The notes beneath the pieces were generated by a model. The model made no database searches and was not told the origin of the DNA. It saw only the letters and a program-made list of their open reading frames with translations. From positions 40,932 through 104,931 of IMG/VR virus record IMGVR_UViG_3300021400_000113: DNA of 64,000 nucleotides, one strand, 5' to 3'. The first letter of the stretch is position 1; each line of letters begins with the position of its first letter. This stretch comes from a virus (taxonomy: Duplodnaviria > Heunggongvirae > Uroviricota > Caudoviricetes). The translations under genes were made by a program, and so were the position numbers. This document shows positions 1 through 43,965 of this stretch, in pieces.

Positions 1-2
1 TT

Positions 3-140
3 TTTACCTTTGAAGATTCCGACATCAAAAATAATGGATGCCAATGGGATTGGGAAGAATATATTTATTGTCCTGAATGCAAACAACAAAACATTATTCA
101 CTCCCGTAAAATTTATCAAACTTTAAACTTTAAAAAATAA
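3..140 (+). CDS. C-terminal fragment of hypothetical Cys-containing protein (partial at window start)
   Basis: Open frame 3 running from the window edge to TAA at 138-140. Contains a CxxW...CPEC zinc-ribbon-like spacing. Frame 1 is also open to 126. Confidence 0.25.
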   Translation, partial: FTFEDSDIKNNGCQWDWEEYIYCPECKQQNIIHSRKIYQTLNFKK

Positions 141-144
141 TTGT

Positions 145-173
145 TTGACTAAATGTTAAAATTATGTTATAAT
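145..173 (+). promoter_or_regulatory. conserved phage promoter copy (-35 TTGACT, 17 nt, -10 TATAAT)
   Basis: ttgact at 145-150 and tataat at 168-173, 17-nt spacer. Matches the repeated consensus. Confidence 0.5.
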
Positions 174-260
174 TTTAATGTAAGTAGGAAAGAAAAAACC
201 AAGAACGAAATCTTATTTCAAGACTAATATGATACCAGAATTAGGAGGAAGAAAATAAAG

Positions 261-401
261 ATGAACGAACTTGACGATTTTCTTTGTAATCCTAGCTATG
301 AAGAACTTGAAGAAGAATTTGAAGCTTGGCTTCAACTTCAAAATCAGGTAGAAGTTAAATACTTGACTCAAAATAAAAATTGTGATATAATAAATATGTA
401 A
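261..401 (+). CDS. small acidic hypothetical protein (46 aa)
   Basis: AGGAGG at 244-249, ATG at 261, TAA at 399-401. The 3' end overlaps a promoter copy. Confidence 0.3.
   Translation: MNELDDFLCNPSYEELEEEFEAWLQLQNQVEVKYLTQNKNCDIINM
363..391 (+). promoter_or_regulatory. conserved phage promoter copy
   Basis: ttgact at 363-368 and TGtgaTATAAT at 386-391, followed by aaatatgtaaag. Precedes tRNA-Ala. Confidence 0.55.
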
Positions 402-408
402 AGTGAAT

Positions 409-483
409 GGGGCATTCGTTCACTCGGTAGGACACGACCCTTGCAAGGTTGAAAAATCGGATCGTAACCGATATGCTCCACCA
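409..483 (+). tRNA. tRNA-Ala (anticodon TGC)
   Basis: Acceptor ggggcat pairs with atgctcc. Anticodon stem cgacc/ggttg, loop cttgcaa. T-arm atcgg-atcgtaa-ccgat. CCA is encoded. Confidence 0.5.
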
Positions 484-608
484 GAGGCCGCGAGGATGAC
501 TGGGCGACGGCAATAAGCGGAGTCATGACCGCATCGCTTTCCCGAGATACTAATAGCATCAACTCGTTAAAGGTTGAAATAGAACCGTAATATGGATGCT
601 ATACGCGT

Positions 609-681
609 GCGCGCTTAGCTCAGTTGGCAGAGCGCTTCGTTTACACCGAAGAAGTCAGCAGTTCAAATCTGTTAGTGCGCA
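609..681 (+). tRNA. tRNA-Val (anticodon TAC)
   Basis: Acceptor gcgcgct pairs with agtgcgc. D-arm tagctcagttggcagagc. Anticodon stem cttcg/cgaag, loop tttacac. T-loop ttcaaat. Confidence 0.6.
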
Positions 682-795
682 TTATAGACTCTCACAGCAA
701 ACAAACACATTCAGTGTCGTGGGTTCGATTCCCATCTTATGCGCAATAGCACGAGTAGCTCAGAGGGTAGAGTATGAAATTAGAGAGTCTAGTTA

Positions 796-825
796 TTTGA
801 CTTAAAATGAAAATTATGATATAAT
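796..825 (+). promoter_or_regulatory. conserved phage promoter copy
   Basis: ttgact at 796-801 and tgaTATAAT at 820-825, followed by aaatatgtaagaaag. Drives the tRNA-Met gene and the GC-rich island. Confidence 0.55.
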
Positions 826-858
826 AAATATGTAAGAAAGAGATAATATTTCCTTCAT

Positions 859-934
859 CGCGGACAGGACAAGCGGTTAAGTCATGGGCCTCATAAGCCT
901 CAAGGACTGGGTTCGACTCCCAGGCCCGCGACCA
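859..934 (+). tRNA. tRNA with CAT anticodon (Met, fMet or Ile-lysidine type)
   Basis: Acceptor cgcggac pairs with gcccgcg with one mismatch. Anticodon loop ctcataa. T-arm ctggg-ttcgact-cccag. CCA is encoded. Confidence 0.45.
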
Positions 935-2047
935 GCCTCTGCCGATGGGGCAATGAAACTAAATCGGTCGATTAAAGTGAAAGACGTTGGCGAACGAAAC
1001 GTTAGGGCGAAAAGGTAGGAACTGGTATGTTCGGGTTCGAATCCCGACGGAGGCAAGGGCGCATACTCCGAACCCTGATGCACTTAGAGTCTAGCCCGCT
1101 CGAAGGTGGCAACTGGAGAGCGTAACCGCACATCGTTCGCGGTATATAAATATGCGGTGTCGGCAAGCAGGGCCAAACTGCTGCAGCTCTGGTAGTCAGG
1201 CAGAGAACTAGAGGCTCCCTAGCATAAATAGAAGGAGTGACGAGGAAGTTACGCAGTTATGGCACTGCGTCTAATCCACCCAGACCAATTGGTCATGTTT
1301 TAAGACATAGAGGTAGGAGAAATTAAATGAGTCGCGCTAATAGACCGCAAGTTCGCAATAGTCTGTTTAGGAAACGCAGTTGAAAAGATACTAAGCGCCT
1401 ATTGGTGCCCAAATGCCGTAGTTAGCGTGTAAGTTTTGAAAGACTAAGACTGAGAAGCTTTAGGTCGCGCGCTAGGAAGAATGGGTTAAATGGAGTTTGA
1501 AGAACAGCCAAGTCCAAACAGTAAGGACATAAAAGAAGGAATGTGAGTTCCCGCCACGCTCAGAGTTGATGGTGCGCTACACTTCGGAAATGGGAAGTGG
1601 GGATGGACGAAGACCAGATTGAGATAGATATACAAACAATGCGCGAAAACAGGCTTGAATGTATGTAGGCCACCTCAAAAGTCATGGCTGAAAAACGGGA
1701 TGGAAGGAAACGAGTTCTCTTGTCCTTACCCAGGTTAAAACCTCGGAAAAGCGATTAATAGTAGTCGCACCCGTCACATTGCGTAGGCCAATTGAGCAGC
1801 AATGCGGTAATACCAGTGCACTGGTAGCAAAGTTACCCTGGCTCCCCAGAGTTTGGGCGCAACCTGGGTTATCAAACGCCTATATGCCCGCATCGAATAA
1901 TTGGTTAGTTCGTCACCCTTTCAAGGTGAAAATTCCGGATCGTTCCCGGATGTGGGTGCCATTACAGGCGGCACGAGTCTGTATAAAGAAACGTGTTCTT
2001 CTCTTCGGGACGACGAAGACCAGGTGAGGTAGTCAGGCTCGCCATAT

Positions 2048-2124
2048 GACCCCATAGTTCAGCTGGTTAGAATACGGCGCTGTCACCGCCGAGATCGCGG
2101 GATCATAACCCGCTGGGGCCGCCA
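2048..2124 (+). tRNA. tRNA-Asp (anticodon GTC)
   Basis: Anticodon stem cggcg/cgccg, loop ctgtcac. D-arm tagttcagctggttagaa. 3' end ctggggcc-g-cca. Acceptor has one mismatch and the T-loop is atypical. Confidence 0.5.
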
Positions 2125-2560
2125 TTCGCATCGCCTCCTTTACGATGCAAGTCTGCGGAAAATACGGATTCTCACTAACCTACGGGTAGCGCCCGCTTGC
2201 GGCTTAGCAGCAGACTATAATAAAAAGACAGGCGAAGTAAGTGACGCCCGACCCCAACAGCAGGGCGTTATAAGCGAGACACGAATCTATAAATATTGAG
2301 GCTAGCTTTATCAATATTATAGTGTTGGGACGTATGTGGCAACCAGTAAGCGCCCGAAATGCTTACGTGAGAGACATCTTATAGCTTATGGAGACGTCCC
2401 TATAATGATGTATAGCTTAGAGTGCTATTTGTCGCGCCATTTAGATGGGTCAGCAATGTTTCTTAATCGTCTGCAACACGAGAGATATGGGTTCGATTCC
2501 CGTCCAGGAAACTGGTAGCTTAATGGAAAAAGCGTTATTATAAGTCCATCTAGTTTTTAT

Positions 2561-2589
2561 TTGACTTTTTCCTAAATTTATAGTATAAT
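2561..2589 (+). promoter_or_regulatory. conserved phage promoter copy
   Basis: ttgact at 2561-2566 and tagTATAAT at 2584-2589, followed by taatacataagaaagg. Confidence 0.5.
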
Positions 2590-2621
2590 TAATACATAAG
2601 AAAGGAAAAATTCCTTTCTGT

Positions 2622-2744
2622 GGCCGATTCGCCAAGTGGTTTGGCAGGTGGCTGGTTGGATAGAATTAGTCCTAGCTAGGTGTAAGACCTAGATCCAGCA
2701 CAATTAACCACCCCAGGGGAGTTCAATTCTCTCATCGGCCGCCA
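2622..2744 (+). tRNA. tRNA-like gene with ~50-nt insert enclosed by the anticodon stem (candidate intron-containing tRNA)
   Basis: Perfect 7-bp acceptor ggccgat/atcggcc with encoded CCA. Class-II-like D-arm gccaagtggtttggc. ggtgg...ccacc encloses about 57 nt. T-arm gggag-ttcaatt-ctctc. Confidence 0.3.
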
Positions 2745-2820
2745 GCCTGAGCAAATGTGGAAAGTCGTATGTGCGGTTGGCTGACCTTAAAGCTAATTAC
2801 AATTTATGAGGTATACCGAA

Positions 2821-3354
2821 ATGATAAGACTAAAAATTCTACCCCCTTGGACAATTTTAGTCCGTAAATTAGAAGCTTTACTTGACGGTGATCCACAGAT
2901 TGCTTTTAATGTCAATTTTAGTGGGGAACATCCTACCGTTGCACTTTCTTGTAATAACGGAGATAAAGTTGCGGCTTTATAGCAAATTTTGCCTGAACAA
3001 ATTTTTTTTGGTAATGTAACATTGAAAATTATGATTGATGGTACTCCAAGTAATCGCGCTTTTACAAGTAAGGTTGAACTATTTGATACAGCGTTTAAGG
3101 GTAATCCAGCATATGCATATTCTGTATGTCCTGCTGAAGAAGGTTATCAGTGGATCGGCACAACTTATGTTGTATTTAATAATTGCGTAGTACAGTTCGC
3201 TGCGGACAACCTAAACGATTGTCATGGTATTATTAGTACTCTATATCAAGATATTGCGGATGAAATTCTAACTGGCCCAGCAACAGAAGGTGTTTTCTAT
3301 AATACTAATGTTGAGCGCGCGAATCTTGGTAAACCTCTTGGCGAATGGCCATAA
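2821..3354 (+). CDS. hypothetical protein; contains one in-frame TAG (2980-2982)
   Basis: ATG at 2821 is in the same frame as ORF 2989-3354 and separated from it only by TAG. Ends with TAA. Confidence 0.4.
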
Positions 3355-3487
3355 TTAATTAAAATTTAAGACCTGTCAGCTAATTTTCTTTTGCTTAGGG
3401 AGCACGGTGTCGATGGTTCGAGTCCATCTCTTCGCATAGCGAAGATAGCTCAGTCGGTAGAGCACGTATATAGCGGGTCTTGTATTC

Positions 3488-3565
3488 CGGGCAGTAGCGC
3501 AGTTGGTTAGTCGCGCGAACCTGATAAGTTCGAGGTCGGTGGTTCAAGTCCACCCTGCCCGACCA
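3488..3565 (+). tRNA. tRNA-Ile (anticodon GAT)
   Basis: Acceptor cgggcag/ctgcccg. Anticodon stem cgaac/gttcg, loop ctgataa. T-arm ggtgg-ttcaagt-ccacc. CCA is encoded. Confidence 0.6.
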
Positions 3566-3618
3566 CTCTCGTAAGAGACCACTTTCATGCCCTAGCCTAT
3601 TGGGTTAAGTAGGCAAAT

Positions 3619-3692
3619 GCGGTATTGGTATAGCGGCTGTGCCCTGGCCTTCCAAGCCGGTGACGCGGGTTCAAGCCCCGCATATCGCTCCA
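3619..3692 (+). tRNA. tRNA-Gly (anticodon TCC)
   Basis: Acceptor gcggtat/atatcgc. Anticodon stem ctggc/gccgg, loop cttccaa. T-arm gcggg-ttcaagc-cccgc. CCA is encoded. Confidence 0.55.
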
Positions 3693-4109
3693 TGGCCTTA
3701 GACGGGTCAAACGATGTAGGCTTTTTCCCAGCTCATTGGGTTAAGTGAGCATTAAGAGACTTGCCCACGCCTCTTAATAATGCGTACCAGGGAAGCACGT
3801 GGCTACAACGGTTAATAGTAGCAATATGGCGAGGTAGACCAATTTGGCAGAGTCAAGAGACTTTAGTAAAATTGAGCACTAAATAGGAAACTATTTATGT
3901 GAATCGCGTCAAATTCGGTGAAACTCCTTACAGGACAATACCGAGCGAAGCCTTTTAGGAACGTGTAGAGACTTGACGGCGCGCACCTAAACAGAAATGT
4001 ATGGTGAAGATAAAGTCCAGACTACAACGCTATTGCGGCCATAGTAATATGGAGTAGTAAGAAAATCTCTGTAGTGTGGGTTCGAATCCCATCCTCGCTA
4101 CCATTTATG

Positions 4110-4185
4110 TCCTCGTAACAGAATTGGCATATGTATTCGGCTCAAACCCGAAGTTCTGTGGGTCCGACTCCCACCGAGGATACCA
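4110..4185 (+). tRNA. class-I tRNA with CAA anticodon (Leu codon UUG; short variable loop)
   Basis: Acceptor gtcctcg/cgaggat with a G-U pair. Anticodon stem ttcgg/ccgaa, loop ctcaaac. T-arm gtggg-tccgact-cccac. CCA is encoded. Confidence 0.45.
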
Positions 4186-4186
4186 T

Positions 4187-4264
4187 GTCCAGTTGGCGCA
4201 ATTTGGCAGACGCGCATGGTTTAGGCCCATGTTTTTGAAGGTTCAAATCCTTTACTGGACACCA
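4187..4264 (+). tRNA. class-I tRNA with TAG anticodon (reads CUA; short variable loop)
   Basis: Perfect acceptor gtccagt/actggac. Anticodon stem catgg/ccatg, loop tttaggc. T-arm gaagg-ttcaaat-ccttt. CCA is encoded. Confidence 0.5.
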
Positions 4265-4420
4265 TTCAAATATTTAGTGGCGGAATATGTAGACGCAGAA
4301 AATACGAACAAGTCAGTCCAACATTCTAGTCATGAATAGAACCACGGTCTGCCGGACATAGGAAATACTTGCAGCTTAGTAATAGGCGAACCTGTGTGGT
4401 GAAAATCCACACCTAAATAT

Positions 4421-4446
4421 TTGACTTTCTTCAAAATTATATATAG
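4421..4446 (+). promoter_or_regulatory. variant promoter copy
   Basis: ttgactttcttcaaaattatatata. Weaker -10. Precedes the small ORF at 4458-4631. Confidence 0.3.
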
Positions 4447-4457
4447 AGGAAAGTAAA

Positions 4458-4631
4458 ATGAATAAAAAAGAAATTATTCAAAAAATTTATAAAGAGTATG
4501 GAAAAGAAAATATAAAATTTTTAACAATAGAAATAGATGAAGATAACCAAAAGGAATACTATGTTCATTATTTAGTCTTAGATGATATTAAATGGATAAG
4601 TCATACAGAATATTTTCCAATTAATATTTGA
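4458..4631 (+). CDS. small hypothetical protein (57 aa)
   Basis: RBS agagga, ATG at 4458, TGA at 4629-4631. Confidence 0.4.
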   Translation: MNKKEIIQKIYKEYGKENIKFLTIEIDEDNQKEYYVHYLVLDDIKWISHTEYFPINI

Positions 4632-4656
4632 CTTTTCTTCAAAATTATTGTATAAT
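4628..4656 (+). promoter_or_regulatory. conserved phage promoter copy
   Basis: ttgact at 4628-4633 and tgtataat at 4649-4656, followed by aattatgtaagaaag. Confidence 0.5.
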
Positions 4657-4683
4657 AATTATGTAAGAAAGAAAGAAGGGAGA

Positions 4684-4905
4684 ATGAAAATGAACCCATT
4701 AAGTTATAAACTTGGCACAAAATTCTCCGGAAAAATTCTTAATGATTGGTTATCTGAACAGATTACTAATCATGGTAGTCATGAAAAAATAGCTCAAAAA
4801 ATTGATAAACATTTTATCCTAAAAAATGATAGAAATTATCAATTAGTACAAATGTCATATCGTGATCGTGAAGAAAAAAGTTTAGGATTTATGAAGGTGG
4901 AATAA
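4684..4905 (+). CDS. hypothetical protein
   Basis: RBS aagggag then ATG at 4684 (MKMNPL...). Stop TAA. Confidence 0.45.
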   Translation: MKMNPLSYKLGTKFSGKILNDWLSEQITNHGSHEKIAQKIDKHFILKNDRNYQLVQMSYRDREEKSLGFMKVE

Positions 4906-4906
4906 A

Positions 4907-5092
4907 ATGGCAATTTTAATTAAAGGCGTATCTAAATATAATAAAGATTGTTATAATTGTCCTTTTAATGATTCAAATTGCTGGTGTAATATCACTAAAA
5001 GTGAAATAGATCGTGATGATTATACCACAGAAGCTCCATGTCCAATTATTGAAATACCAGATTCAATACTTGACTTTTTCCAAAATTCATGA
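4907..5092 (+). CDS. small Cys-rich hypothetical protein
   Basis: ORF with multiple Cys residues (CYNCPF...CWC). The 3' end runs into a promoter copy. Confidence 0.45.
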   Translation: MAILIKGVSKYNKDCYNCPFNDSNCWCNITKSEIDRDDYTTEAPCPIIEIPDSILDFFQNS

Positions 5093-5098
5093 TATAAT
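5070..5098 (+). promoter_or_regulatory. conserved phage promoter copy
   Basis: ttgact at 5070-5075 and tgatataat at 5090-5098, followed by aaatatgtaagaaagg. Drives GC-rich non-coding island 5116-5700. Confidence 0.55.
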
Positions 5099-5732
5099 AA
5101 ATATGTAAGAAAGGAAAACGAAATGTAAAAGACATTTTGTTTAGCAATTATGAACCAAGTGAAGATGTGCTAACCACACAGCTTGGGATACTTGAATAAC
5201 AGCCATACACTACGGCCCGGGATACTAGGCAAGTGCGGCCGCGAAACTAGTAATAGTTAGCGATAGTGGAGAAACTCCAAATGTTAAGAGTATGCGCCAA
5301 GTAATTTGCTTGAAAATGCACGATTCCTTACGGCGACATAATAGGAAGCCAGGTTAAGAGCCAGGCCAAATCCAGATAAGGTATTGGGGTGGTAGCCAAT
5401 ACAAACTCTGGAAAAACCACAAGTCGCTATGTCGATGAAAGCCAGAAATGGCATATAAGTAAGGTTTGCGGTTGGAGTAGCCCAATTTGACAGTAATTCT
5501 AATAATATTTGATACAGATATTGAAGATGCTGAATGGTTTGGGTGAAACTTAGAGGTAAGCAATCCTCTCTATTCTCGGCGCTTGGCGTGGGAATCGGAT
5601 GGTATAAGGTCGCTACTTATACCACAGCCCGGTTTTCAATAGTAGCATAATATTCAAGAAGAATTATGAGGTACGGCGAAGGTCGCAGTAATTGTTAAAC
5701 AAAGTGTCTTTTATATTGAAAAAGGATATAAA

Positions 5733-5948
5733 ATGAAAGCTAAATGTATCAAATGTAAAACAGTTTGGGAATATGAAGCAAATGAAATGAAAGTTGAACT
5801 AAATGGAACAGGATTAATTATAGCTTTATATTGTCCGAAATGTCATAAACAGTTTTATGGATGCAATCCAAATGAACTTGCTTTAAGTGTAACGCCTGTT
5901 TCTGTTGATCATAAAATTGAACGTAAGGCAAAGTATGATTGGGAGTAA
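5733..5948 (+). CDS. small zinc-ribbon protein (CxxC...CxxC)
   Basis: ORF with CIKCK and CPKCH motifs. RBS aaaggatataaaatg. Confidence 0.5.
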   Translation: MKAKCIKCKTVWEYEANEMKVELNGTGLIIALYCPKCHKQFYGCNPNELALSVTPVSVDHKIERKAKYDWE

Positions 5949-5963
5949 ATATAATATTGATAT

Positions 5964-5992
5964 TTGACTTCATTCTAAAATTATGATATAAT
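5964..5992 (+). promoter_or_regulatory. conserved phage promoter copy
   Basis: ttgact at 5964-5969 and tgatataat at 5984-5992, followed by aaatatgt. Sits upstream of a tRNA cluster. Confidence 0.55.
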
Positions 5993-6179
5993 AAATATGT
6001 TGAGAACGTGGGACATATAAGTTATATGGAGTTAAGGCGCCACCACGAACAGTACTATATGCGGCGATTCTCAACATTAACTAAACGTGAAGGGAACAAG
6101 TTACCTTAGAAGACTTGCGCGTCAAGTGGACCTGTAACGGGAGGAGAAGGTCGTAAATATTCTCCCTCCGCCATTTAAT

Positions 6180-6258
6180 GCCCTATTAGCTCAGCGGAAT
6201 AGAGCACCGCGCTACGGACGCGGGTTTGTCAGGCGTTCAAATCGTCTATAGGGCACCA
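6180..6258 (+). tRNA. tRNA-Arg (anticodon ACG)
   Basis: Perfect acceptor gccctat/atagggc. D-arm gctcagcggaatagagc. Anticodon stem ccgcg/cgcgg, loop ctacgga. T-loop ttcaaat. CCA is encoded. Confidence 0.65.
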
Positions 6259-6332
6259 TTAACGACGATTACAGCAATAGTTTTAACAATAAATTAGGGA
6301 TTTATTTAGTTAGAAATCGTCGTGTTATTTAT

Positions 6333-6423
6333 GCGTCGGTGTGGCTAGTGGCGAAGCCAGCAGACTGTAAATCTGCTCCCCTCAGGGTAAACATCGTAGG
6401 TTCAACTCCTACTCGGCGCACCA
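6333..6423 (+). tRNA. tRNA-Tyr (anticodon GTA), class II with long variable arm
   Basis: Acceptor gcgtcgg/tcggcgc. Anticodon stem gcaga/tctgc, loop ctgtaaa. Variable arm cccctcaggg. T-arm gtagg-ttcaact-cctac. CCA is encoded. Confidence 0.55.
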
Positions 6424-6504
6424 ATAGTGTTGCGAGCTTAGTCGCAGGAAAGTTACTACCCTAAGGCAACCGTTGTGAGTTTGGTGTTCAAAACTCTCAT
6501 ATGG

Positions 6505-6632
6505 GCGAGTAGCCAAGTGGTCAAAGGCATTGGAACCATAAATGAATCTAGTGACTAAGGTTCTAACAGCTACTTAATGGACTGTAAATCCAAGGCGAAA
6601 GCTACGCAGGTTCAAATCCTGTCCTCGCCCAT
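6505..6632 (+). tRNA. tRNA-like gene with ~50-nt insert inside the anticodon stem (terminal loop ctgtaaa, GTA)
   Basis: Perfect acceptor gggcgag/ctcgccc. Class-II D-arm gccaagtggtcaaaggc. ttgga...tccaa encloses about 58 nt. T-arm has ttcaaat. Confidence 0.35.
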
Positions 6633-6637
6633 TACAA

Positions 6638-6727
6638 AGGGGAGTGGTGTAACGGCAACACGCAGGTCTCTAAAACCTGGGCCTTCTGAGGGCGTCATTC
6701 TCGGTTCAAATCCGAGCTCCCCCGCCA
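6638..6727 (+). tRNA. amber suppressor tRNA (anticodon CTA, reads UAG), with a long variable region
   Basis: Perfect anticodon stem caggt/acctg with 7-nt loop ctctaaa, giving U33-CUA-A37. D-stem gtgt/acac. T-arm ctcgg-ttcaaat-ccgag. 3' end ctccccc-g-cca. Variable region is about 20 nt. Confidence 0.6.
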
Positions 6728-6826
6728 ATTATAGACCATTTCTGCAAATAATTAATGGATAAAGAAAATTTCTGTAAAAAATTTTTGAATAGGTTCGATT
6801 CCTATAAATTTCAAATGGTCTAGTTC

Positions 6827-6899
<73 letters not shown>

Positions 6900-7034
6900 T
6901 TAAATCACATTAGATAAAAGTACGATCAATAAAATAGTCTATATCCTTCGTTGACGCTATAAGGGTAATTAATGAAAAGTCAATTACTGTGGATAGGTTC
7001 CATTTGGAGAATCGGGAGAATGGATGTGATTTAT

Positions 7035-7107
7035 GCGCGTGTAGCTCAGTTGGTAGAGCACGTGACTTTTAATCACGGTGTCGAGAGTTCAATTCTCTCC
7101 ACGCGCA
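7035..7107 (+). tRNA. tRNA-Lys (anticodon TTT)
   Basis: Perfect acceptor gcgcgtg/cacgcgc. D-arm tagctcagttggtagagc. Anticodon stem cgtga/tcacg, loop cttttaa. T-arm gagag-ttcaatt-ctctc. Confidence 0.7.
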
Positions 7108-7129
7108 CTAATTTGAAAGGAGTATTAAA

Positions 7130-7456
7130 ATGAATACTATACTAGGTAAAATTACTAATGTAAGATTTGGTTTTATTCCGGACTATCCGTTTCTTTTTGG
7201 AATTGATTTTGATTTTTCTCTTGGAGACGGTAGTGGTATTGGCTCTGGCGGAAAATATACTGTTAATATCAGTAAAGACTGTAAATGGAGCGCGGAAGAA
7301 CGTAAAGAAGCGATTGAAAGTTCAATTGACTTCATCGTTAAAATTTTAAAAGATGCTAAAGTAGATAATGTATATGATCTTAAAAATAAGCCAGTAGAAG
7401 TATATATTCAAGATAATACTTTTGTCAATTTTAGAATTTTAACAGAAGTTCTATAA
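7130..7456 (+). CDS. hypothetical protein
   Basis: ORF with RBS aaaggag. Gly-rich segment GDGSGIGSGG. Confidence 0.5.
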   Translation: MNTILGKITNVRFGFIPDYPFLFGIDFDFSLGDGSGIGSGGKYTVNISKDCKWSAEERKEAIESSIDFIVKILKDAKVDNVYDLKNKPVEVYIQDNTFVNFRILTEVL

Positions 7457-7474
7457 CATAAAGGAGTATATGAT

Positions 7475-7843
7475 ATGACTGTTCAGGAAGTAGTTTGGTT
7501 CATGAATCATAAATACGGTGAACAAGCATATGTTGTAGAAACAAAGGAAGAAATTTTATTGTTCTCATTAAAATCAAAATGGATTATTAAAAAATCTGAT
7601 TTTAAACACTTTCATACTTATACTCTATTTCATTTTAACGATATTGAACGTGAACATTATCATGTTCAATTAAAATCTCAAAATTTAGATTATCTCGTAT
7701 ACCAAGCAATCGCACACGATAATGAAAAAATTCCATATTCTAATAATGATTGGAAACAATTTAATGAAATGTGGAATATGTATTTATTAGGTAGAGAAAT
7801 TGAAGGACGTGCGGCAGCTTGGGATTGGTTATGTGGTCGGTAG
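7475..7843 (+). CDS. hypothetical protein (terminates at TAG; see rejected notes)
   Basis: ORF with RBS aaggag. The only stop before the tRNA cluster is TAG at 7841-7843. Confidence 0.45.
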   Translation: MTVQEVVWFMNHKYGEQAYVVETKEEILLFSLKSKWIIKKSDFKHFHTYTLFHFNDIEREHYHVQLKSQNLDYLVYQAIAHDNEKIPYSNNDWKQFNEMWNMYLLGREIEGRAAAWDWLCGR

Positions 7844-7904
7844 TTTAACGGTAAAACCTCGGATTGTGGCTCCGAAGACGCAGGTTCAACTCCTGTCCTT
7901 CCAA
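7833..7904 (+). tRNA. tRNA-His (anticodon GTG) with G-1; imperfect acceptor
   Basis: Perfect anticodon stem tcgga/tccga with loop ttgtggc. D-stem gttt/aaac. T-arm gcagg-ttcaact-cctgt. Acceptor tggtcgg/ccttcca has 2 central mismatches. Confidence 0.45.
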
Positions 7905-7905
7905 T

Positions 7906-7976
7906 GCAGGTATAGTATAGTGGTAATACATCACCTTGCCAAGGTGAAATCGCGGGTTCAAATCCCGCTACTTGCT
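7906..7976 (+). tRNA. tRNA-Gly (anticodon GCC)
   Basis: Acceptor gcaggta/tacttgc. Anticodon stem tcacc/ggtga, loop ttgccaa. T-arm gcggg-ttcaaat-cccgc. Confidence 0.6.
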
Positions 7977-7982
7977 TATTAT

Positions 7983-8057
7983 GGCATGGTAGCTGAGATG
8001 GATTAGCACTTGACTGAAAATCAAGATAGGTTGGATCGTTACCAACCCATGCCACCA
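7983..8057 (+). tRNA. tRNA-Phe (anticodon GAA)
   Basis: Perfect acceptor ggcatgg/ccatgcc. Anticodon stem cttga/tcaag, loop ctgaaaa. CCA is encoded. T-loop is atypical. Confidence 0.5.
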
Positions 8058-8060
8058 TAT

Positions 8061-8132
8061 AGGTCGGTGGTGCAATTGGTAGCATAGCGGTCTCCAAAAC
8101 CGTTGATTGGGGTTCGAGTCCCTGCCTTCCTG
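8061..8132 (+). tRNA. tRNA-Trp (anticodon CCA); imperfect acceptor
   Basis: Anticodon stem gcggt/accgt, loop ctccaaa. T-arm tgggg-ttcgagt-ccctg. Acceptor aggtcgg/ccttcct has 2 mismatches, the same pattern as tRNA-His. Confidence 0.45.
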
Positions 8133-8136
8133 CTAT

Positions 8137-8208
8137 GCGTCCAATTCTCGTCGGTCGGGAGAGGGTCTGCAAAATCCTTGTTAGTTGGTTCAACTCCAAC
8201 TGGACGCT
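8137..8208 (+). tRNA. tRNA-Cys (anticodon GCA)
   Basis: Perfect acceptor gcgtcca/tggacgc. Anticodon stem agggt/atcct, loop ctgcaaa. T-arm gttgg-ttcaact-ccaac. Confidence 0.55.
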
Positions 8209-8215
8209 TTATTAC

Positions 8216-8244
8216 TTGACTTTTAGTTAAAATTATAGTATAAT
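8216..8244 (+). promoter_or_regulatory. conserved phage promoter copy
   Basis: ttgact at 8216-8221 and tagtataat at 8236-8244, followed by aaatatgtaaagaac. Confidence 0.55.
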
Positions 8245-8263
8245 AAATATGTAAAGAACATGG

Positions 8264-8420
8264 GGTGTGATTAAAGCATCAGGGTAGTTTTCGCTGTACT
8301 TAGAAATAAGTACCGGTTCCGGGCAAACAGGAGCAAGCGTAAGGGTATGAAGCATTTTAATTGCACGCACCGAAGTGGGTCCGCACATCCACTGGGGTTC
8401 AATTCCCCCACACTCCACCA
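8264..8420 (+). ncRNA. ~157-nt RNA with tRNA-like termini (GGGG 5' end, T-arm plus CCA 3' end); long tRNA-like or intron-containing tRNA
   Basis: 5' ggggtgt pairs with 3' acactcc-a-cca. T-arm ctgggg-ttcaatt-cccc. About 85 extra nt in between. Lies directly downstream of a promoter copy. Confidence 0.3.
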
Positions 8421-8484
8421 GGTTCGTCTATGATGCCTTACGTAGACCGTGGGGTACAGACCACGTTAAAATTGCTGTACGTTA

Positions 8485-8560
8485 CGGGGTGTAGCGCAGT
8501 TGGTAGCGTGCTTGATTTGGGATCAAGAAGTCGTGGGTTCAAGTCCCACCACTCCGACCA
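8485..8560 (+). tRNA. tRNA-Pro (anticodon TGG)
   Basis: Acceptor cggggtg/cactccg. D-arm tagcgcagttggtagcg. Anticodon stem cttga/tcaag, loop tttggga. T-arm gtggg-ttcaagt-cccac. CCA is encoded. Confidence 0.6.
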
Positions 8561-8736
8561 GTAACCTTTGAGAATGGGAATATATAAAGGTGTTGCCGCC
8601 GAAGCGGGTCGCGAACCAAATCGGAAAGGAAAATTCTCGTATCCCGGACGAACCACTAGGGAATCTTAAGGAGGTGGCCGCCGTAAGCCCGGTCGTTAAA
8701 GATATACAAATGTTATTGGTATATCTGGCTTATTTT

Positions 8737-8806
8737 GCTTCATTGATGTAATGGCAACATAAGTGTTTCGTAAGCACCATATAGAGGTTCGACTCCCTAT
8801 GAAGCT
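8737..8806 (+). tRNA. tRNA-Thr (anticodon CGT)
   Basis: Perfect acceptor gcttcat/atgaagc. Anticodon stem gtgt/gcac, loop ttcgtaa. T-arm gagg-ttcgact-ccct. Confidence 0.45.
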
Positions 8807-8823
8807 TCAAGAAAGGTGATAAT

Positions 8824-9147
8824 ATGAAAGAAGATCGAAAACCAATCTATCGTATCCTCTTATTTTCAAAAATTCCTACATTAGATAAACTTGGATGGCC
8901 TGATTGTGGTACTCAGGATGACGTAGGTTTTTACTATGAATATGAAACCGCAGTTCGCGCGATGCATGAAAATTGGTGTGATATTCAAGACGGCGGATTA
9001 TTTAAAGCAGGATTTATTTTAACTTCATATCCAGGTTGTTATGATAACGCGACAAAAGATCGTCGTACTTATTTTGAATGGGATGAAGAACGCGGCGGGT
9101 TTTTTGAAAAAGAAGAACCAGAATGTTTTGAACATTTTTCTTATTAA
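8824..9147 (+). CDS. hypothetical protein
   Basis: ORF with RBS aaaggtgataatatg. Confidence 0.5.
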   Translation: MKEDRKPIYRILLFSKIPTLDKLGWPDCGTQDDVGFYYEYETAVRAMHENWCDIQDGGLFKAGFILTSYPGCYDNATKDRRTYFEWDEERGGFFEKEEPECFEHFSY

Positions 9148-11971: not shown

Positions 11972-12161
11972 GCCGCCGTGGCTCAATGGTAGAGCAGCGC
12001 ACTTGTCAAGTTAGTTTAAGAGTAAAACACCCGAATCACAGGGATAAGACCGTATTAACTAATTAATTGACGAATTAATTAGGCGAAGATATGTAAGCTC
12101 AATACTTACACTTGGCTCCAGTAATGCGCAGGTTACAGGTTCAAGTCCTGCCGGCGGCTCC
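11972..12161 (+). tRNA. tRNA gene interrupted by a ~115-nt insertion in the anticodon loop (candidate intron-containing tRNA, possible TGT anticodon)
   Basis: Perfect acceptor gccgccg/cggcggc with CCA. D-arm gctcaatggtagagc. Anticodon stem 5' gcgca and loop start cttgtca at 11997-12008. Matching tgcgc lies at 12124-12128. T-arm cagg-ttcaagt-cctg follows. Confidence 0.45.
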
Positions 12162-12431
12162 AAGCGTTTAGGCGATATCGCTCTGAGAACAACCACCCAG
12201 GCAGTGAGGGGAGATAAGATATTCGCGAACAAGAGCTCCTTAGCCCTCACAATTAAGACAGGCTTTTCGGGTTAACACAGCAAATTATTTCCGAAGTAGT
12301 ATAAAGGTAGTACACTGTGAATAAAACCTCAGAGATTTCGGTTCGAATCCGAACCCCCTGTCTGTCTTGGAATTGCGGTTGAAATCTTCGGATGAAACCT
12401 GTCCCGGAGGATGCGTCCAAAGGGATTTTAT

Positions 12432-16751: not shown

Positions 16752-19184
16752 ATGTCACAGGTAATTAATATTACTGATAGTAAAACTATTATTCCTTCTG
16801 GTTATGATAGTAATAACTCATCATATTCTAGTATTAATAGCAGTTATCCAGTAACCAACGGTTATACTGATGCCGATTCTACCTCTTATGCTTATATAAC
16901 TTGTAATACTGGCTCTCATGCTACTACGTATATTTCTTATACTTTTGATACTTCAGAAATTCCAGAAAACGCGGCAATAGATTCTATTACTTGTAAAGCT
17001 AAAGTACGCGTAAGTTCTACTTCTTATATTTCTACCGGAGTCACATAGCTGTACACCGGAAGTATAGCGAAAGGCAGTGCGACAACTACAAGAAGTACTA
17101 CAGCAACTACATATGATTTAACTACTGGAACTTGGACCCGTACAGAACTTAATGACGTTCAAGTACGTTTTACAGGCACGCGTGGTACAAGTAATACCAC
17201 CCGTGCCGCTTATTTATACTTTTATGGGGCTACTCTGACTATAAATTATTCTATTAATGGAACATAGTATAGTATTGTAGCAACCAGTAATGTTGAAAAT
17301 TATGAAATCTCTCCAAATCATCAAAATAAAATGGAAGGAGAGGAAGCAACGGTTACTATAACCGGAAATAATTTAGAAGATATTATCGTAACAGATAATG
17401 ATATAGATATAACAGAAAATTTAATATAGCATACAATTGAAAATACTGGAAGTGTATCCGCAATCCCAGGAGAAAATTTTGAAACAGGATTTAGTTCTTC
17501 TAATGCAAATTTTTATATGTCTTCAAGTTCAACCGGAACAACATGGTTAGAATATGCAATTGGGCACTCTGCTGAAAATCCATATACTTCTTCTAGCTCC
17601 CATAATACTTATGTTAAAGATAATGACAATAATACTGCAACTGGCTGGATTAGCTTCCCATTCGATTTTAGTGAAATTCCTTTTAATGCCGTAATAGATT
17701 TGGTTACAGTTAAAGTATATGGCGCACGTGAGAATTCAACCACTGATTCTACTCACGTAGCAAAATTTGGAGTCTATTGTAATGGAGTATTAAAAGGGGC
17801 AGAATAGCAATTTACTAGTACGACAAGTGGTATTGTTACTCTAACCTCCCCCGGAACCTGGACGCGCGAAGAATTACAATCAGCAGAACTTCGTTTTACA
17901 GTTGCGTATTATGGAGGACATTTAGATGGCGCTACTTGGACTGTAAATTACAGCGTTCCTAATACAGGAAATAATTATTATTGGACTTATGATTTAACTA
18001 ATATCAATGCAGACCATGTTATTTTAATAGATTAGCGTGGTGCTTTTATTCCTCCCGAAGAAAATCCAGAATATGAATATTATCCAATAACGATTTCTAG
18101 TATTAATGCTACTACAACCCCACATAATGGCTCTACCCGTATAATAGAAGGAAGCAATCAAACTATTACTATATCTCCTTCTGACCCACAATTAACACTT
18201 GCTTTAGATAATGGAGTAGACATTACAAGTCAATTGTAGGGAGGCACCCCTGAAAATACTTATACAATAACTACACAAGTCTCAGGAGCAAGTTATGGCT
18301 TTAATCTAAATGAATCAACTGGATATTATGTTTCAACTAATAGAGGAGTTTCAAATTCAGCAGCAGTTGCTAGACTTAATATGAATTTTGAAAGTAATTG
18401 TTTAGTAACAATACAATATATCAACTATGCTGAATCTGGATATGACTATGGACTATTTGGAAAATTGGACACGGTAGTATCAACAAGCGGTCTAACCGCT
18501 TCCAGTGGTAGTTCCTCCCCATCTGATAGTGATAACTATCAGTTAGCAATGGCATCTAATAATAGTGGCACACAAACAATAACTTATGAAGTACCCTATG
18601 GAGAACATTTTATTGATATTAAATATGGTAAAGATGCTGCGACCGATTCTAATAATGATACTTTATAGTGGAAAGTATTAAGTATAGAAGCCACCAGTGT
18701 CGGTGGAGATTATACATATACATTAACAAATATACAAGAAAAACATAGTTTAATTTTCATATTTGGTAATGTAAATTATTATTTTATAAATTCTTCCGGA
18801 ACAGAATGTAAATTATACCCGGATGGATAGATGGTTAAACTGGAAGGAGATAAATATAATTTAAGAATAATTCCAAATGATGTGAAAGCAACCGTAACCA
18901 TTGTAGATAATAATGTAAATGTTACAAATTTATTATCTATAGAAGAAGGAATAGATAAAAATAACAATCCAATTATTAATTATATATATACTTTAAATAA
19001 TATTATACAAACACATAATTTAGTTATTACATGCATTACTCATCATTAGATTTTATATACTAAAATTAATGGAAATTGGATTAATTTTAGTAAAGCTTAT
19101 GTTAAGATTAATGGCTCTTGGGCAGAGCAAACAGAACTAAGGTAGGTATTCGATAGCCGATTAAATTATGTAAAAGGAAATTAA
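16752..19184 (+). CDS. large tail fibre / adhesin-like protein (~811 codons) with ~10 in-frame TAG codons
   Basis: ORFs 16752-17048, 17517-17807, 18381-18668 and 18831-19049 all share frame 0. Only TAG codons interrupt them. First TAA is at 19182-19184. Composition is Thr/Ser/Asn/Gly-rich. Confidence 0.55.
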
Positions 19185-19281: not shown

Positions 19282-20790
19282 ATGAATACTTTACTAAATG
19301 CGATGAAAAATGCTACTAATTATACTCACACCGAAAATGGAGCTATTACTCATGTTACTTCTAATTCCGCTCTACTAGACATGTTTGGTATGGGCGGTTC
19401 TATGCGCAATCGCTCTGATAATGATGTAATTTTTATGTTTAAAAAGGCATATGATGAAAATCCTGAATATGCCCTAAAGTGCTTATTTTATCTTCGTGAC
19501 GTGCGCGGTGGTCAGGGAGAACGTCGTTTTTTCCGCACTGTAATTAATTAGCTTGCTAATGAAAACAAGGAAGCGGTTATTCGCAATCTTGAGGCTATTC
19601 CTGAAATGGGACGTTGGGATGATTTATATTCTCTAATTGGTACTTCTTGTGAAAAGGAAGCATTAAACTTTATGCTTCATCAAATCACCCTTGACGCCGC
19701 AAGTAAGACTCCCTCTCTACTTGCTAAGTGGCTGAAATCTGAAAATACTTCTTCTGCGGAAAGTCGTCGTTTAGCCACTAAGACTCGTGAATATTTTGGA
19801 CTAACTCCTCGTGAATATCGTAAAATGCTTTCTAGTCTACGTACCAAAATCAATGTTCTTGAAAAGCTAATGTCTCAAAATCGTTGGGATGAAATCGAAT
19901 TTGATAAGATTCCTTCTAAGGCTGGACTTATCTATAAGAATGTTTTTGCTACTAAAGATGTAACCAAAGCTCGCTATGCGGCTTTTATGGCAAATAAAGA
20001 GACCAAGGTAAATGCTAGCGTACTAAATCCCGTAGATATCGCCAAACAAATTTTTTCCTCTAACTATGCCTCTAAGGTAGACCGTCTTGCTTGGGATAAA
20101 TATTGGGCAAATTTAAAAGACTATTACAATGGTCGTGAAGAACGCGGCATTGCCGTAGTAGATGTCAGTGGTAGTATGTATGGTACACCTCTATACGCCG
20201 CAGTATCTATGGGTGCTTATATCGCAGAACGTGGTAAGGGGCCTTTCCAGAATCACTTTATCACTTTCTCTGATAAACCTGAACTTGTTGAGTTCAATGG
20301 TATCGACCTTTATGATAAGTTCCGTCGCGCGGAAACTGCGAACTGGCAAGGTAGTACTAATGTTGAAGCAGTGTTTGACTTGCTACTTGATACCGCTAAG
20401 AAAAATCATGTGACTCAGGAAGAAATGCCTGAAACACTTTATATCCTTTCTGATATGGAATTTAATAGTTGTATGACTGATAGCACAGTTACTTACGATT
20501 ATTGGGGTCGTCCTCGCCGTAAGATTCTTGAAAATTCCGCAGAAGTAAATACTCTAATCGAAAAGAAAGCTAAGGAATGGAAGGCCGCGGGATATAAAGT
20601 ACCTAATGTGGTATTCTGGAATCTTGATGCGCGGCAAGATAATATTCCTGCAATTGGGGAAGGATTCTTTTACGTATCTGGTAATTCTATGAACGTAATT
20701 GAAAGTATTCTTTCTCGTACTCCTCCTAAAACCGCGACAGAATTAATGATGGACGTTTTAAACCGTCCTAGATATAGCAATATTCATTAA
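19282..20790 (+). CDS. vWA-domain protein (DUF2828/TROVE-like), one in-frame TAG (19549-19551)
   Basis: ORFs 19282-19551 and 19606-20790 share a frame across TAG. Has a MIDAS-like VVDVSGSM motif. Confidence 0.5.
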
Positions 20791-26218: not shown

Positions 26219-27445
26219 ATGCTAAATGCTAAACAAGAACGCGAACTAGCTTATGTAGTCATTGTAGATGGAATTGAACCTATTCCTGGTTATGATCGCG
26301 TAGAACATGCTATTATTGGTGGTTGGCGAGTAATTGTTCAGAAAGACCAGTTTAAAGTGGGTGATCCCGCTATTTACTTTGAAATTGATTCTCGTGTGCC
26401 CGCAGATAGAGAATGCTTTGCTTTCCTTGAAAAGCGTAATTATAAAGTAAAAACTTTAAAGATGTGCAAAACTATTTCTCAGGGATTACTAATGCATGCC
26501 GCTGATTTTGGATGGCATATTGAAAATCTTGCAGAAGATGTAAATATTTGCATTGTTGATGATAAAGGCGTTCGTCATTATCCTCATGACGAATCTCGTT
26601 TCTTAACTAAGCAACTTGGTATAACCTATGCCGACGAAGAAGATAACCAACGGAAAACCCCTTCTGTAGATAAGTATAAGAAAATGGCTGGACGCCATCC
26701 TAAATTATTTAAAAAGCCTTTTATTCGTTGGTTAATGAAGTATTCTTGGGGTCGTAAAATCATGTTCTTTTTCTTCGGTAAAAAGAAGGACAAGAAGAAC
26801 GGATGGCCTGCTTGGGTTCAAAAAACAGATGAAGAAAGAATAGAAAATATGCCTTTTGTGCTTCAGAACAAGAATCCTTGGATTGTAACCGAGAAAGTGG
26901 ATGGTTCTTCCACTAGCTTTACTATGAAACGCGGAAAATTCGGTAAAAAAGAGTTCTATGTTTGCTCTCGTAATGTGTGTTTTGACAGCGTAGATAAACC
27001 TTGCTATTACGATACAAATATTTATTGGGAAATGGCACAGAAATATCATATGTTTGAGGCATTATCTAAACTTCTTGATTCTATGCCCGCGGTTGAATGG
27101 GTAACTATTCAGGGCGAAACCTATGGTGAGGGAGTTCAGCGTAACACTTATGGACTTAATTACCATGATTTTATGGCTTTTAACCTTATTACTTCTGATA
27201 AGGGCCGTTGGAATAGTTGCGACATGAAGGAGATTCTTGAAAAAGATTATAATATCCCTTGTGTGCCTATTCTTAATGATAATTATATCCTCCCTGATAC
27301 TGTAGAAGAACTTCGTGAGTATGTAAATAGTCAGCCCTCAGTTATTGATGGCAAGATGAAAGAGGGCATTGTATGTCGCTCTCCCGATGGTATTCATTCA
27401 TTCAAATGTGTTTCACCTGAATATCTTCTAAAATATCATAGTTAA
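26219..27445 (+). CDS. ATP-dependent polynucleotide ligase-like protein (KxDG nucleotidyltransferase; RNA-ligase-like)
   Basis: IVTEKVDGSS is the motif I lysine-adenylate signature of the ligase family. Confidence 0.45.
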   Translation: MLNAKQERELAYVVIVDGIEPIPGYDRVEHAIIGGWRVIVQKDQFKVGDPAIYFEIDSRVPADRECFAFLEKRNYKVKTLKMCKTISQGLLMHAADFGWHIENLAEDVNICIVDDKGVRHYPHDESRFLTKQLGITYADEEDNQRKTPSVDKYKKMAGRHPKLFKKPFIRWLMKYSWGRKIMFFFFGKKKDKKNGWPAWVQKTDEERIENMPFVLQNKNPWIVTEKVDGSSTSFTMKRGKFGKKEFYVCSRNVCFDSVDKPCYYDTNIYWEMAQKYHMFEALSKLLDSMPAVEWVTIQGETYGEGVQRNTYGLNYHDFMAFNLITSDKGRWNSCDMKEILEKDYNIPCVPILNDNYILPDTVEELREYVNSQPSVIDGKMKEGIVCRSPDGIHSFKCVSPEYLLKYHS

Positions 27446-40338: not shown

Positions 40339-40356
40339 GCTCCCACTTTTCTTTTT
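40329..40356 (+). terminator. rho-independent terminator
   Basis: Hairpin gggagcataagctccc followed by a T-rich run. Confidence 0.5.
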
Positions 40357-40368
40357 ATCTATAAACAC

Positions 40369-40397
40369 TTGACAATAATTTAAATTTATGATATAAT
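40369..40397 (+). promoter_or_regulatory. conserved phage promoter copy (TTGACA)
   Basis: ttgaca at 40369-40374 and tgatataat at 40389-40397. Confidence 0.5.
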
Positions 40398-43951: not shown

Positions 43952-43965
43952 AGGAGATTAAAATT

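Follow-up and report, generated by a model that had tools for sequence, protein, structure and literature searches.

A probable YrlA-type Y RNA family that mimics tRNA in the tRNA array of a tailed phage, and its genomic linkage to a Ro60-like gene

What is encoded where, in the tRNA array of a phage, the 3' half of a tRNA stands directly before a 5' half? The question arose from a 64,000-nucleotide stretch of a Caudoviricetes genome (IMG/VR record IMGVR_UViG_3300021400_000113), here called the window, for which a reading made from the sequence alone had proposed permuted tRNA genes and orphan tRNA halves. A tRNA array of the phage type, on the + strand, makes up the first 13 kb of the window, with 25 tRNAs called by ARAGORN, a suppressor tRNA(CUA) among them. 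Long ORFs downstream hold abundant in-frame TAG codons (10 in 16752-19184, 20 in 33948-36821), so that TAG is read as sense, and near-consensus promoters (TTGACT-17-TATAAT) recur on the + strand. Megablast of window positions 1-9000 against GenBank phages returned just two 50-nt tRNA matches, hence no annotated close relative among those phages; IMG/VR supplied 54 related contigs of up to 193 kb. The window also encodes an RNA ligase (Table 1), which we take as context for an RNA-repair or RNA-quality-control setting only, any link to the RNAs described below being conjecture.

At 3395-3440 the sequence-only reading had seen a 3' half followed at once by a 5' half beginning with the exact 7-nt complement of the acceptor strand, and the sequence bears this out (T-arm at 3412-3428, then TCTTCGC/GCGAAGA). 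The unusual order was also described correctly: variable region, T-arm, acceptor 3' strand, loop, acceptor 5' strand, D-arm. These parts lie inside a larger unit, element C, which takes up all 118 nt separating an ORF from tRNA-Ile, and whose MFE fold gives a closing stem (P1), the acceptor hairpin and the D-arm; G15 is able to pair with C48 (3411). The pattern GGTTCGANTCC-N10-30-TAGCT, a T-loop followed by TAGCT, has three occurrences in the window (at 722, 2490 and 3415), as against none in 100 shuffles, and its three sites are those that had been reported as truncated tRNA starts, an orphan 3' half and the permuted pair. Two further full copies, elements A and B, were delimited there, and a reduced relative, element D, lies further along the array. 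All share the strand of the tRNAs. They begin 1-4 nt past the upstream tRNA and stop a few nucleotides short of the next tRNA or promoter, mostly lying within a few nucleotides of flanking tRNAs or just ahead of a promoter. In elements A, B and C the closing stem opens with WAGA and is followed directly by (A/T)CAGC(A/T)A.

Several other claims of the earlier reading were recast by these boundaries. The stretch at 746-795, taken for truncated tRNA starts running into promoters, does adjoin a promoter (-35 box at 797, 6 nt beyond the end of element A, which itself starts 2 nt past tRNA-Val), but the supposed truncated tRNA is the GCACGAG-TA-D-arm part of element A. The 3' half at 2480-2520 is not an orphan, its T-arm (2487-2503) having its own hairpin CCAG-gaaa-CTGG and a D-arm (2518-2533) within element B, with a promoter downstream at 2561. 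The D-armless hairpin described at 6778-6812 is indeed a T-arm hairpin (6789-6805) without a D-arm, but its loop is TTCGATT, not GTA, and it sits inside element D (6732-6822), which has neither an acceptor hairpin nor a D-arm and is followed just after by tRNA-Thr at 6827.

One reported half lies outside the Y-like family altogether. A 3' half at 4060-4109 had been matched with a 5' acceptor at 3825; that pairing was right, but the half is no orphan: a group I intron interrupts a tRNA-Leu(UAA), of which this is the 3' exon, and so both pieces are explained. The Rfam family Intron_gpI (RF00028) scored 58.3 bits at 3854-4038 (threshold 50), and the intron mode of ARAGORN called tRNA-Leu(taa) at 3828-4103 with an intron of 198 nt; the group I catalytic core lies within the anticodon loop, and the exons join into a tRNA. 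Brute-force in-silico splicing of 3828-4103 was uninformative by itself, since many arbitrary joins were 'called'. For element C, a trans-spliced or permuted group I intron-exon arrangement was considered and rejected: the element fills the 118 nt from the ORF to tRNA-Ile, and no intron core lies nearby.

Table 1. Features of the window. P1, closing stem; R1, covariance model of the RNA family. P1, T-arm and acceptor-like hairpin of element C, and element D, were read from the sequence.
Feature	Position	Strand	Details
Element A, second full copy	684..794	+	R1 93.2 bits; MFE fold gives all helices
Element A, P1	685-693/783-791	+	
Element A, motif ACAGCAAA	694-701	+	
Element A, T-arm	719-735	+	
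Element A, acceptor-like hairpin	736-755	+	one mismatch
Element A, D-arm	758-772	+	
Element B, third copy	2441..2555	+	R1 56.0 bits, E 5e-9; short acceptor-like hairpin
Element B, P1	2442-2449/2545-2552	+	
Element B, motif TCAGCAAT	2450-2457	+	
Element B, T-arm	2487-2503	+	
Element B, hairpin CCAG-gaaa-CTGG	2504-2515	+	4 bp
Element B, D-arm	2518-2533	+	
Element C, complete Y-RNA-like tRNA mimic	3367..3484	+	R1 128.9 bits, E 4e-25; site to which the sequence-only reading pointed
Element C, P1 5' strand AAGACCTG	3368..3375	+	pairs with 3474-3481 CGGGTCTT
Element C, single-stranded motif TCAGCTAA	3376..3383	+	directly 3' of the P1 5' strand; family consensus CAGCAA
Element C, T-arm GATGG-TTCGAGT-CCATC	3412..3428	+	
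Element C, acceptor-like hairpin TCTTCGC-ATA-GCGAAGA	3429..3445	+	7 bp, perfect; TCTTCGC 3429-3435, loop ATA 3436-3438, exact complement GCGAAGA 3439-3445, then TA
Element C, D-arm GCTC-AGTCGGTA-GAGC	3448..3463	+	preceded by U8 A9
Element C, P1 3' strand CGGGTCTT	3474..3481	+	tRNA-Ile starts at 3488, 7 nt on
tRNA-Leu(UAA) split by group I intron	3828..4103	+	Rfam Intron_gpI and ARAGORN intron mode
Element D, reduced relative	6732..6822	+	closing stem and motif shared; T-arm only
Element D, P1 TAGACCATTT/AAATGGTCTA	6732-6741/6813-6822	+	
Element D, motif CTGCAAAT	6742-6749	+	
Element D, T-arm	6789-6805	+	
Candidate partner, Ro60-like protein	19282..20790	+	502 aa, one in-frame TAG; Pfam: alpha-helical DUF2828 and vWA-type DUF7788
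RNA ligase gene	26219..27445	+	Pfam RNA_ligase and PHA02142 OB-fold; PHROG 968 'RNA ligase'

A covariance model, R1, was built from two window copies and six homologues. It gave 62 full-length matches (E < 1e-5) across the window and 54 related loci, all on the tRNA strand and one to three a locus, and covariance model search brought the family to about 180 distinct relatives in phage contigs from independent assemblies. Pairing statistics were taken over 56 distinct sequences for 27 pairs in five helices. Standard pairs filled 98.7% of the cells of this alignment, vs. 36-42% when the 3' partners were slid by 1-3 columns; compensatory (two-sided) changes occurred in 26 of the 27 pairs, and the covariation score was 0.82, vs. 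0.21 in shuffles. Such changes were seen at all eight pairs of P1, all seven of the acceptor-like hairpin, all four of the D-arm and four of the five of the T-arm, the remaining T-arm pair, G53:C61, being invariant. This alignment had been fitted to the model, so an independent check was made on 28 unaligned members; from these, MAFFT and RNAalifold arrived de novo at P1, the two arms and the acceptor-like hairpin between them, and 18 of the 19 pairs were compensated. The acceptor-like helix, 7 bp or longer in most members, is the most sequence-variable part of the family, yet is paired throughout. Homologues of element D (11 aligned) likewise keep P1, an inner hairpin and the T-arm paired through changes.

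We show that the inner part of the RNA folds as a tRNA elbow with no anticodon arm, comprising the variable region, the T-arm, a capped 7-bp acceptor-like helix, U8-A9 and the D-arm. The place of the anticodon arm is filled by a 3-bp helix, a large asymmetric loop that holds CAGCAA, and a closing stem of 8-10 bp; the loop between P2 and P1 measures 16-38 nt on its 5' side and 4-12 nt on its 3' side. Family ends pair as WAGAC.../...GUCUWG, after which comes the near-invariant single-stranded CAGCAA (CAGCA stands directly after the closing stem in 85 of 90 distinct members).

Y RNAs that mimic tRNA, together with Ro60 partners, are known from bacteria and a few phages. At a relaxed threshold YrlA (RF02553) was the sole non-tRNA family of Rfam to match all three sites, with 35.1 bits at 698-802 (full model covered), 35.0 at 3404-3468 and 25.6 at 2484-2533, in alignments that span the T-arm, the hairpin, the UAGCUCA...GGUAGAGC D-arm and the enclosing stem; the window copies, like a member in Mycobacterium phage LeBron (39.8), all fall below the Rfam gathering score of 69 bits. 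YrlA is composed of a T-arm, an 'AS' (acceptor-stem) hairpin and a D-arm closed by a Ro60-binding stem, laid out much as in a tRNA that is followed from its variable loop around to its D-arm (Chen et al. 2014; PMC4201824). Both structural features recur in our family: T- and D-arm-like stem-loops are split by an acceptor-stem hairpin, all three helices covarying, and the ends pair into a closing stem, with eight compensated P1 pairs and agreeing MFE folds. The Ro-binding motif of YrlA, GNCGAAN0-1G (PMC4201824), does not recur, CGAA being absent from the 5' region of all four window elements.

The window encodes a candidate protein partner (Table 1), in which the Ro60/TROVE layout, a HEAT-repeat alpha-helical ring and, after it, a vWA domain bearing a MIDAS motif, can be recognized; the MIDAS-like motif of its vWA-type domain is DVSGS. 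Sequence searches give little hint of this. Pfam TROVE (PF05731) did not match the protein even at E<=1, where only DUF2828, DUF7788 and a weak vWA were found, and neither phmmer nor a 30-sequence profile returned anything useful from PDB sequences. The family is annotated as 'RNA-binding protein' in PHROG 850, and in the literature DUF2828 came up only in passing, in plants and tardigrades. An AF2 model of an 85%-identical homologue, made from a 30-sequence alignment, reached medium confidence (pLDDT 74.5); the best six Foldseek matches to it were all Ro60/TROVE (E 9e-8 to 2e-5, TM 0.37-0.53), the best being phage, frog and Deinococcus Ro60. The protein at 19282-20790 is thus predicted to be Ro60-like, a likeness revealed by fold comparison alone.

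RNA and gene are tightly linked in phage genomes. When loci were centred on the protein, an RNA lay within 10 kb upstream on the same strand in 31 of 80. A reverse sample of 80 IMG/VR loci was picked solely by the RNA pattern CAGCAA...GGTTCRANTCC...TAGCTCA; 71 of these had a near-full-length match to the model, and 24 had a DUF2828-type gene (24-42% identity). In the 21 loci where RNA and gene were both present the strand was always the same, with a median nearest distance of 430 nt; 17 lay closer than 2 kb, and 18 within 4 kb. Unsupervised clustering of the ORFs within 3 kb of the RNA placed the DUF2828 family at the top, with 18 loci, the next cluster having six. The linkage is partly confounded, because RNA and gene both tend toward tRNA arrays. 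YrlA is characterized by lying within about 4 kb of a Ro60 gene and on its strand, and the family overall lies likewise by a Ro60-like (DUF2828) gene; in the window the strand is the same, but the RNAs of this phage lineage are 16-19 kb upstream of the gene.

Cultured phages have the same pair of components. The DUF2828 + vWA protein family matched 711 GenBank phage records, including Felix O1-like, Listeria P100-like, Staphylococcus, Enterococcus and Campylobacter phages and cluster L mycobacteriophages. None of the cultured-phage proteins matched Pfam TROVE even at E<=1, and they were probably missed by the 2014 survey, which was based on TROVE annotation. In Mycobacterium phage LeBron gp53, the 'Ro-like RNA binding protein', is followed 110 nt downstream by an unannotated R1 match (44 bits); in Bacillus phage PK-3 two copies stand among tRNAs, upstream of the gene; and Felixounavirus EC6 has one copy about 1 kb downstream of it. 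Directly upstream of its DUF2828 gene, Listeria phage LMTA-34 carries three tandem mini-elements that consist of the closing stem and ACAGCAA only, pointing to closing stem plus CAGCAA as the conserved core. The RNA was unannotated in the GenBank records examined, and no Rfam family reaches threshold. For a P100-like Listeria phage, a 2025 study reported unannotated regions with very high transcription in the 2 kb before the gene and speculated that these are Y RNAs (PMC12282133).

Taken together, the window likely holds three full copies and one reduced copy of a phage non-coding RNA built like a YrlA-type Y RNA, from a family linked to the gene for a Ro60-like (DUF2828 + vWA) protein that is present here. 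As we picture its working, the RNAs would be co-transcribed with the tRNA array and excised by tRNA-processing enzymes; the closing stem and CAGCAA are a candidate docking site for the Ro60-like ring protein, and the tRNA-like elbow may be a handle for a second factor. In the bacterial and phage systems already known the second factor is PNPase, tethered by the Y RNA. Here it could be PNPase, by analogy with the bacterial systems and that of phage phiLo, or else RNase P, a CCA-adding enzyme or an RNA ligase. A docked ring whose RNA offers such a handle would therefore act in RNA quality control, degradation or repair during infection. The YrlA of Mycobacterium smegmatis is cleaved by RNase P and then receives CCA, which has been put down to its 7-bp helix (PMC4201824). 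By analogy many members of the phage family are probably cut in the loop by RNase P and CCA-ended, as we infer from the 7-bp helix and from the N-CCA encoded by one member in five (right after the 7th pair in 31 of 158 distinct members, vs. about 2.5 expected by chance); many of the RNAs may mature as two pieces with a tRNA-type 3' end. We are much more tentative, and on balance doubtful, about a stronger proposal, that in most members RNase P cuts within the loop, the new 3' end is brought to CCA by trimming or extension, and the two-piece RNA, with a true tRNA-type acceptor end and seated on its Ro60-like ring, makes up a counter-defence or repair device. Such a particle might confront tRNA-targeting nucleases or toxins of the host with an imitation tRNA, or alternatively recruit a CCA-adding enzyme, RNA ligase or PNPase so as to maintain the large tRNA set of the phage. 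Were the two-piece, CCA-ended form real, the 'permuted' idea would be literally right at the level of RNA processing.

Independence from the Ro60-like protein is the essence of the best-surviving alternative, in which the elements are tRNA-like processing marks (for RNase P or 3'-end punctuation, fixing where transcripts end within the array) or decoys for host enzymes or toxins whose target is the elbow or acceptor of tRNA. They do stand exactly between tRNAs or at the ends of transcription units ahead of promoters; the protein gene is 16-19 kb off in the window; and the smallest substrate of RNase P is an acceptor-like helix of 7 bp stacked on a T-arm (PMC4201824). Left unexplained are the conserved closing stem and CAGCAA, which occur together without any tRNA-like part in LMTA-34, and the fact that in distant phages the RNA lies on the strand of the DUF2828 gene and less than a kilobase from it, and we regard such a role as unlikely.

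The encoded N-CCA can also be read as the mark of a miniature two-piece tmRNA-like or otherwise chargeable RNA, its loop cleaved and its acceptor end aminoacylated for a role at the ribosome or in transfer; aminoacylation has been raised as a possibility for the M. smegmatis YrlA (PMC4201824). Like two-piece tmRNA genes, the elements have a permuted tRNA-like domain, where the acceptor 5' strand comes last, after the T-arm, the acceptor 3' strand (at times with CCA) and a spacer. The likeness ends there: at about 115 nt the whole RNA is too short to hold pseudoknots or the reading frame of a tag, its canonical D-arm is complete where that of tmRNA is reduced, and the Rfam models of tmRNA and permuted tmRNA match the T-loop only, at 9-12 bits. 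Alanine identity was tried and rejected, G3:U70 being present in only 15 of 149 members, with no enrichment; no conserved identity element or discriminator was found among the members, and 80% of them, including the three full copies in the window, have no encoded CCA. A tmRNA-like or otherwise chargeable RNA is therefore very improbable.

As for the permuted tRNA genes with which we began, their 3' half does lie upstream of the 5' half, with a short loop bridging the termini and with leader-trailer pairing, in Cyanidioschyzon merolae and some archaea (Soma et al. 2007, via PMC4090602), and our elements share this order, the bridging loop and a pairing leader and trailer (P1); the phage encodes an RNA ligase, and one member in five has N-CCA after the acceptor 3' strand. 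Genuine cases have a full cloverleaf, a bulge-helix-bulge splice site formed from leader and trailer, and a circular intermediate (PMC4090602); on this reading the phage transcript would be circularised or ligated across its ends and the acceptor loop then cut, to give a normal decoding tRNA. The cloverleaf with its anticodon arm, the bulge-helix-bulge and the protein endonuclease and ligase that serve it have no parallel in the phage elements. These are not permuted tRNA genes, because they have no anticodon arm: neither a 5-bp anticodon stem nor a 7-nt loop is present, and the P2-P1 loop does not have the geometry of 3-nt bulges round a 4-bp helix. After rotation at the acceptor loop, ARAGORN found a credible tRNA in 0 of 56 members with introns off; with introns on it called 43 of the 56, but only by dropping 12-54 nt, and the resulting anticodons (Pro, Leu, Glu, Ser, Lys and others) disagree even between orthologues. 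The acceptor helix is hypervariable across orthologues, with G1:C72 in only 76 of 149 members, and the conserved CAGCAA is without counterpart in tRNA. The proposal of permuted or split tRNA genes fails on these grounds, and what chance it retains is slight in the extreme.

The idea that the elements are decayed tRNA remnants, false positives of adjacent tRNAs, attachment-site tRNA fragments or assembly artefacts could appeal to the dense tRNA array, to partial R1 matches (model positions 40-102 only) at tRNA-tRNA junctions and to the warning that dimeric tRNAs may score as YrlA (PMC4201824), but it is refuted by covariation and has next to no probability: full-length matches take in the closing stem and motif, the hairpin strands are mutually complementary and stay paired through two-sided changes, neither 'half' has an upstream 5' half or a downstream 3' half to go with it, and the same arrangement, which the sequence-only reading had allowed might be a sequencing or assembly error, is met again, compensatory changes included, in dozens of independent contigs, the roughly 180 distinct members being from independent assemblies. 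An attachment site with a tRNA 3' half was separately rejected because of the four copies, the D-arm and the covariation. The elements resemble split or permuted tRNA genes and dimeric tRNAs, and so are able to mislead the annotation of phage tRNAs.

The preferred reading, a YrlA-type Y RNA with a Ro60-like partner, would extend the Y RNA/Ro60 system to a large class of phages; it offers a structure supported by covariance, a motif that is a candidate for protein binding (closing stem plus CAGCAA), and a prediction of RNase P cleavage and CCA ends for cultivable phages. Two systems provide the comparison. The Ro60 of Thermus phage phiLo binds two Y-like RNAs encoded beside its gene (Yrl1 and Yrl2; PDB 9KOP, 9L5Y) and complexes host PNPase, both of which were demonstrated there (PMC12135203). 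The phiLo RNAs bear the CGAA motif, the passages compared describe no tRNA-like module in them, and the phiLo protein is recognizable by sequence as TROVE, with about 15% identity to the protein family of the window.

With YrlA itself, for which the set compared includes RNAs of mycobacteriophages encoding TROVE-annotated Ro60, the elements differ in two of its features, the motif and the score: GNCGAAN0-1G is replaced in the phage family by WAGAC-N3-4-CAGCAA, and the Rfam YrlA score of the family is 25-40 bits, vs. a gathering score of 69. Their partner is a sequence-divergent Ro60-like protein, of the DUF2828/DUF7788 type and without a detectable sequence match to Pfam TROVE. The phage RNAs are moreover multi-copy and embedded in tRNA arrays, lie 16-19 kb from the gene in the window, and encode CCA in the loop in one fifth of members. 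Against these differences stand the same order of modules (a closing stem made from both ends, an optional variable hairpin, T-arm, acceptor-stem hairpin and D-arm), the same residues for tRNA tertiary contacts (U8, A14, G15:C48, G18G19, G53:C61 and the T-loop), the 7-bp helix of the M. smegmatis YrlA, and a Ro60-like gene on the same strand, usually close.

Encoded CCA ends are found in part of the Y-like RNA family of phage tRNA-mimic noncoding RNAs: 31 of the 158 distinct members (alignments A3, A5 and A6) carry N-CCA directly 3' of the seventh pair of the acceptor-like helix, and in many of these the 'discriminator' is also paired with the base preceding +1.

Among the other features of the window (see table), the ROOL RNA lies within the tRNA array, with a consensus promoter shortly upstream (5070-5098). 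Listeria phage LMTA-34 has a ROOL-like match (L256:2470-3021; 88.5 bits, below threshold) about 1 kb upstream of its DUF2828 gene, which encodes a Ro60-like protein. Three tRNA genes hold insertions below group I intron size, and each tRNA, insertion included, is conserved in one or more related contigs (L048 for Thr(GGU), L001 for Tyr(GUA), and L015 and L022 for Thr(UGU)). The G+C-richer stretches gave neither a convincing ORF nor an Rfam match and may be additional structured RNAs. Within one of them, a tRNA-like piece of 115 nt occurs at 940-1055, with paired acceptor ends, a T-arm (1031-1047) and an aberrant middle. The 182-aa ORF at 2806-3354 had no Pfam match; it is strongly conserved, at 76-91% identity across 54 viral contigs, and in every case is located in the tRNA/Y-like RNA region.

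In-frame TAG is numerous in long ORFs, with 10 in 16752-19184 and 20 in 33948-36821 (the two longest), and is absent from many other ORFs of the window. This unevenness, together with the CUA suppressor tRNA, is consistent with a reassigned TAG that only some of the genes employ. The nucleotide-salvage genes, comprising two permeases and an adenylosuccinate synthetase-like gene, are unusual cargo for a phage genome.

Features of the window outside the Y-like RNA family
Feature	Window position	Strand	Detail
ROOL RNA, complete	5131-5705	+	Rfam RF03087, 323 bits, full model
tRNA-Thr(GGU)	2622-2744	+	49-nt insertion in anticodon loop
tRNA-Tyr(GUA)	6503-6631	+	47-nt insertion near position 33
tRNA-Thr(UGU)	11972-12162	+	116-nt insertion
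Suppressor tRNA	6638-6727	+	anticodon CUA, long variable arm
G+C-richer stretches	~940-1885, 2125-2440, 4265-4420, 6000-6180	+	
ORF, 182 aa	2806-3354	+	one in-frame TAG
Xanthine/uracil-family permease genes, two	42647-45276	+	tandem
Adenylosuccinate synthetase-like gene	30049-31131	+	

A family member and mini-elements also occur in cultured phages. LMTA-34 (NC_042048.1) has three mini-elements in tandem in the 395-nt gap (L256:3606-4000) immediately 5' of the DUF2828 gene; they lack the tRNA-like part and consist only of a 7-bp closing stem (AGGAATC/GATTCCT, AGAGAGC/GCTCTCT and AGGAAGC/GCTTCCT), each with ACAGCAA. In Mycobacterium phage LeBron, a member (L255:5527-5652; about 40269-40394 of HM152763.1, where it is unannotated) lies between gp53, the 'Ro-like RNA binding protein', and gp54. 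Because a DUF2828-type protein was found by mass spectrometry in purified virions of Listeria phage CKA15 (20 peptides, 57% coverage; PMC12282133), packaging of the Ro60-like protein is a possibility.
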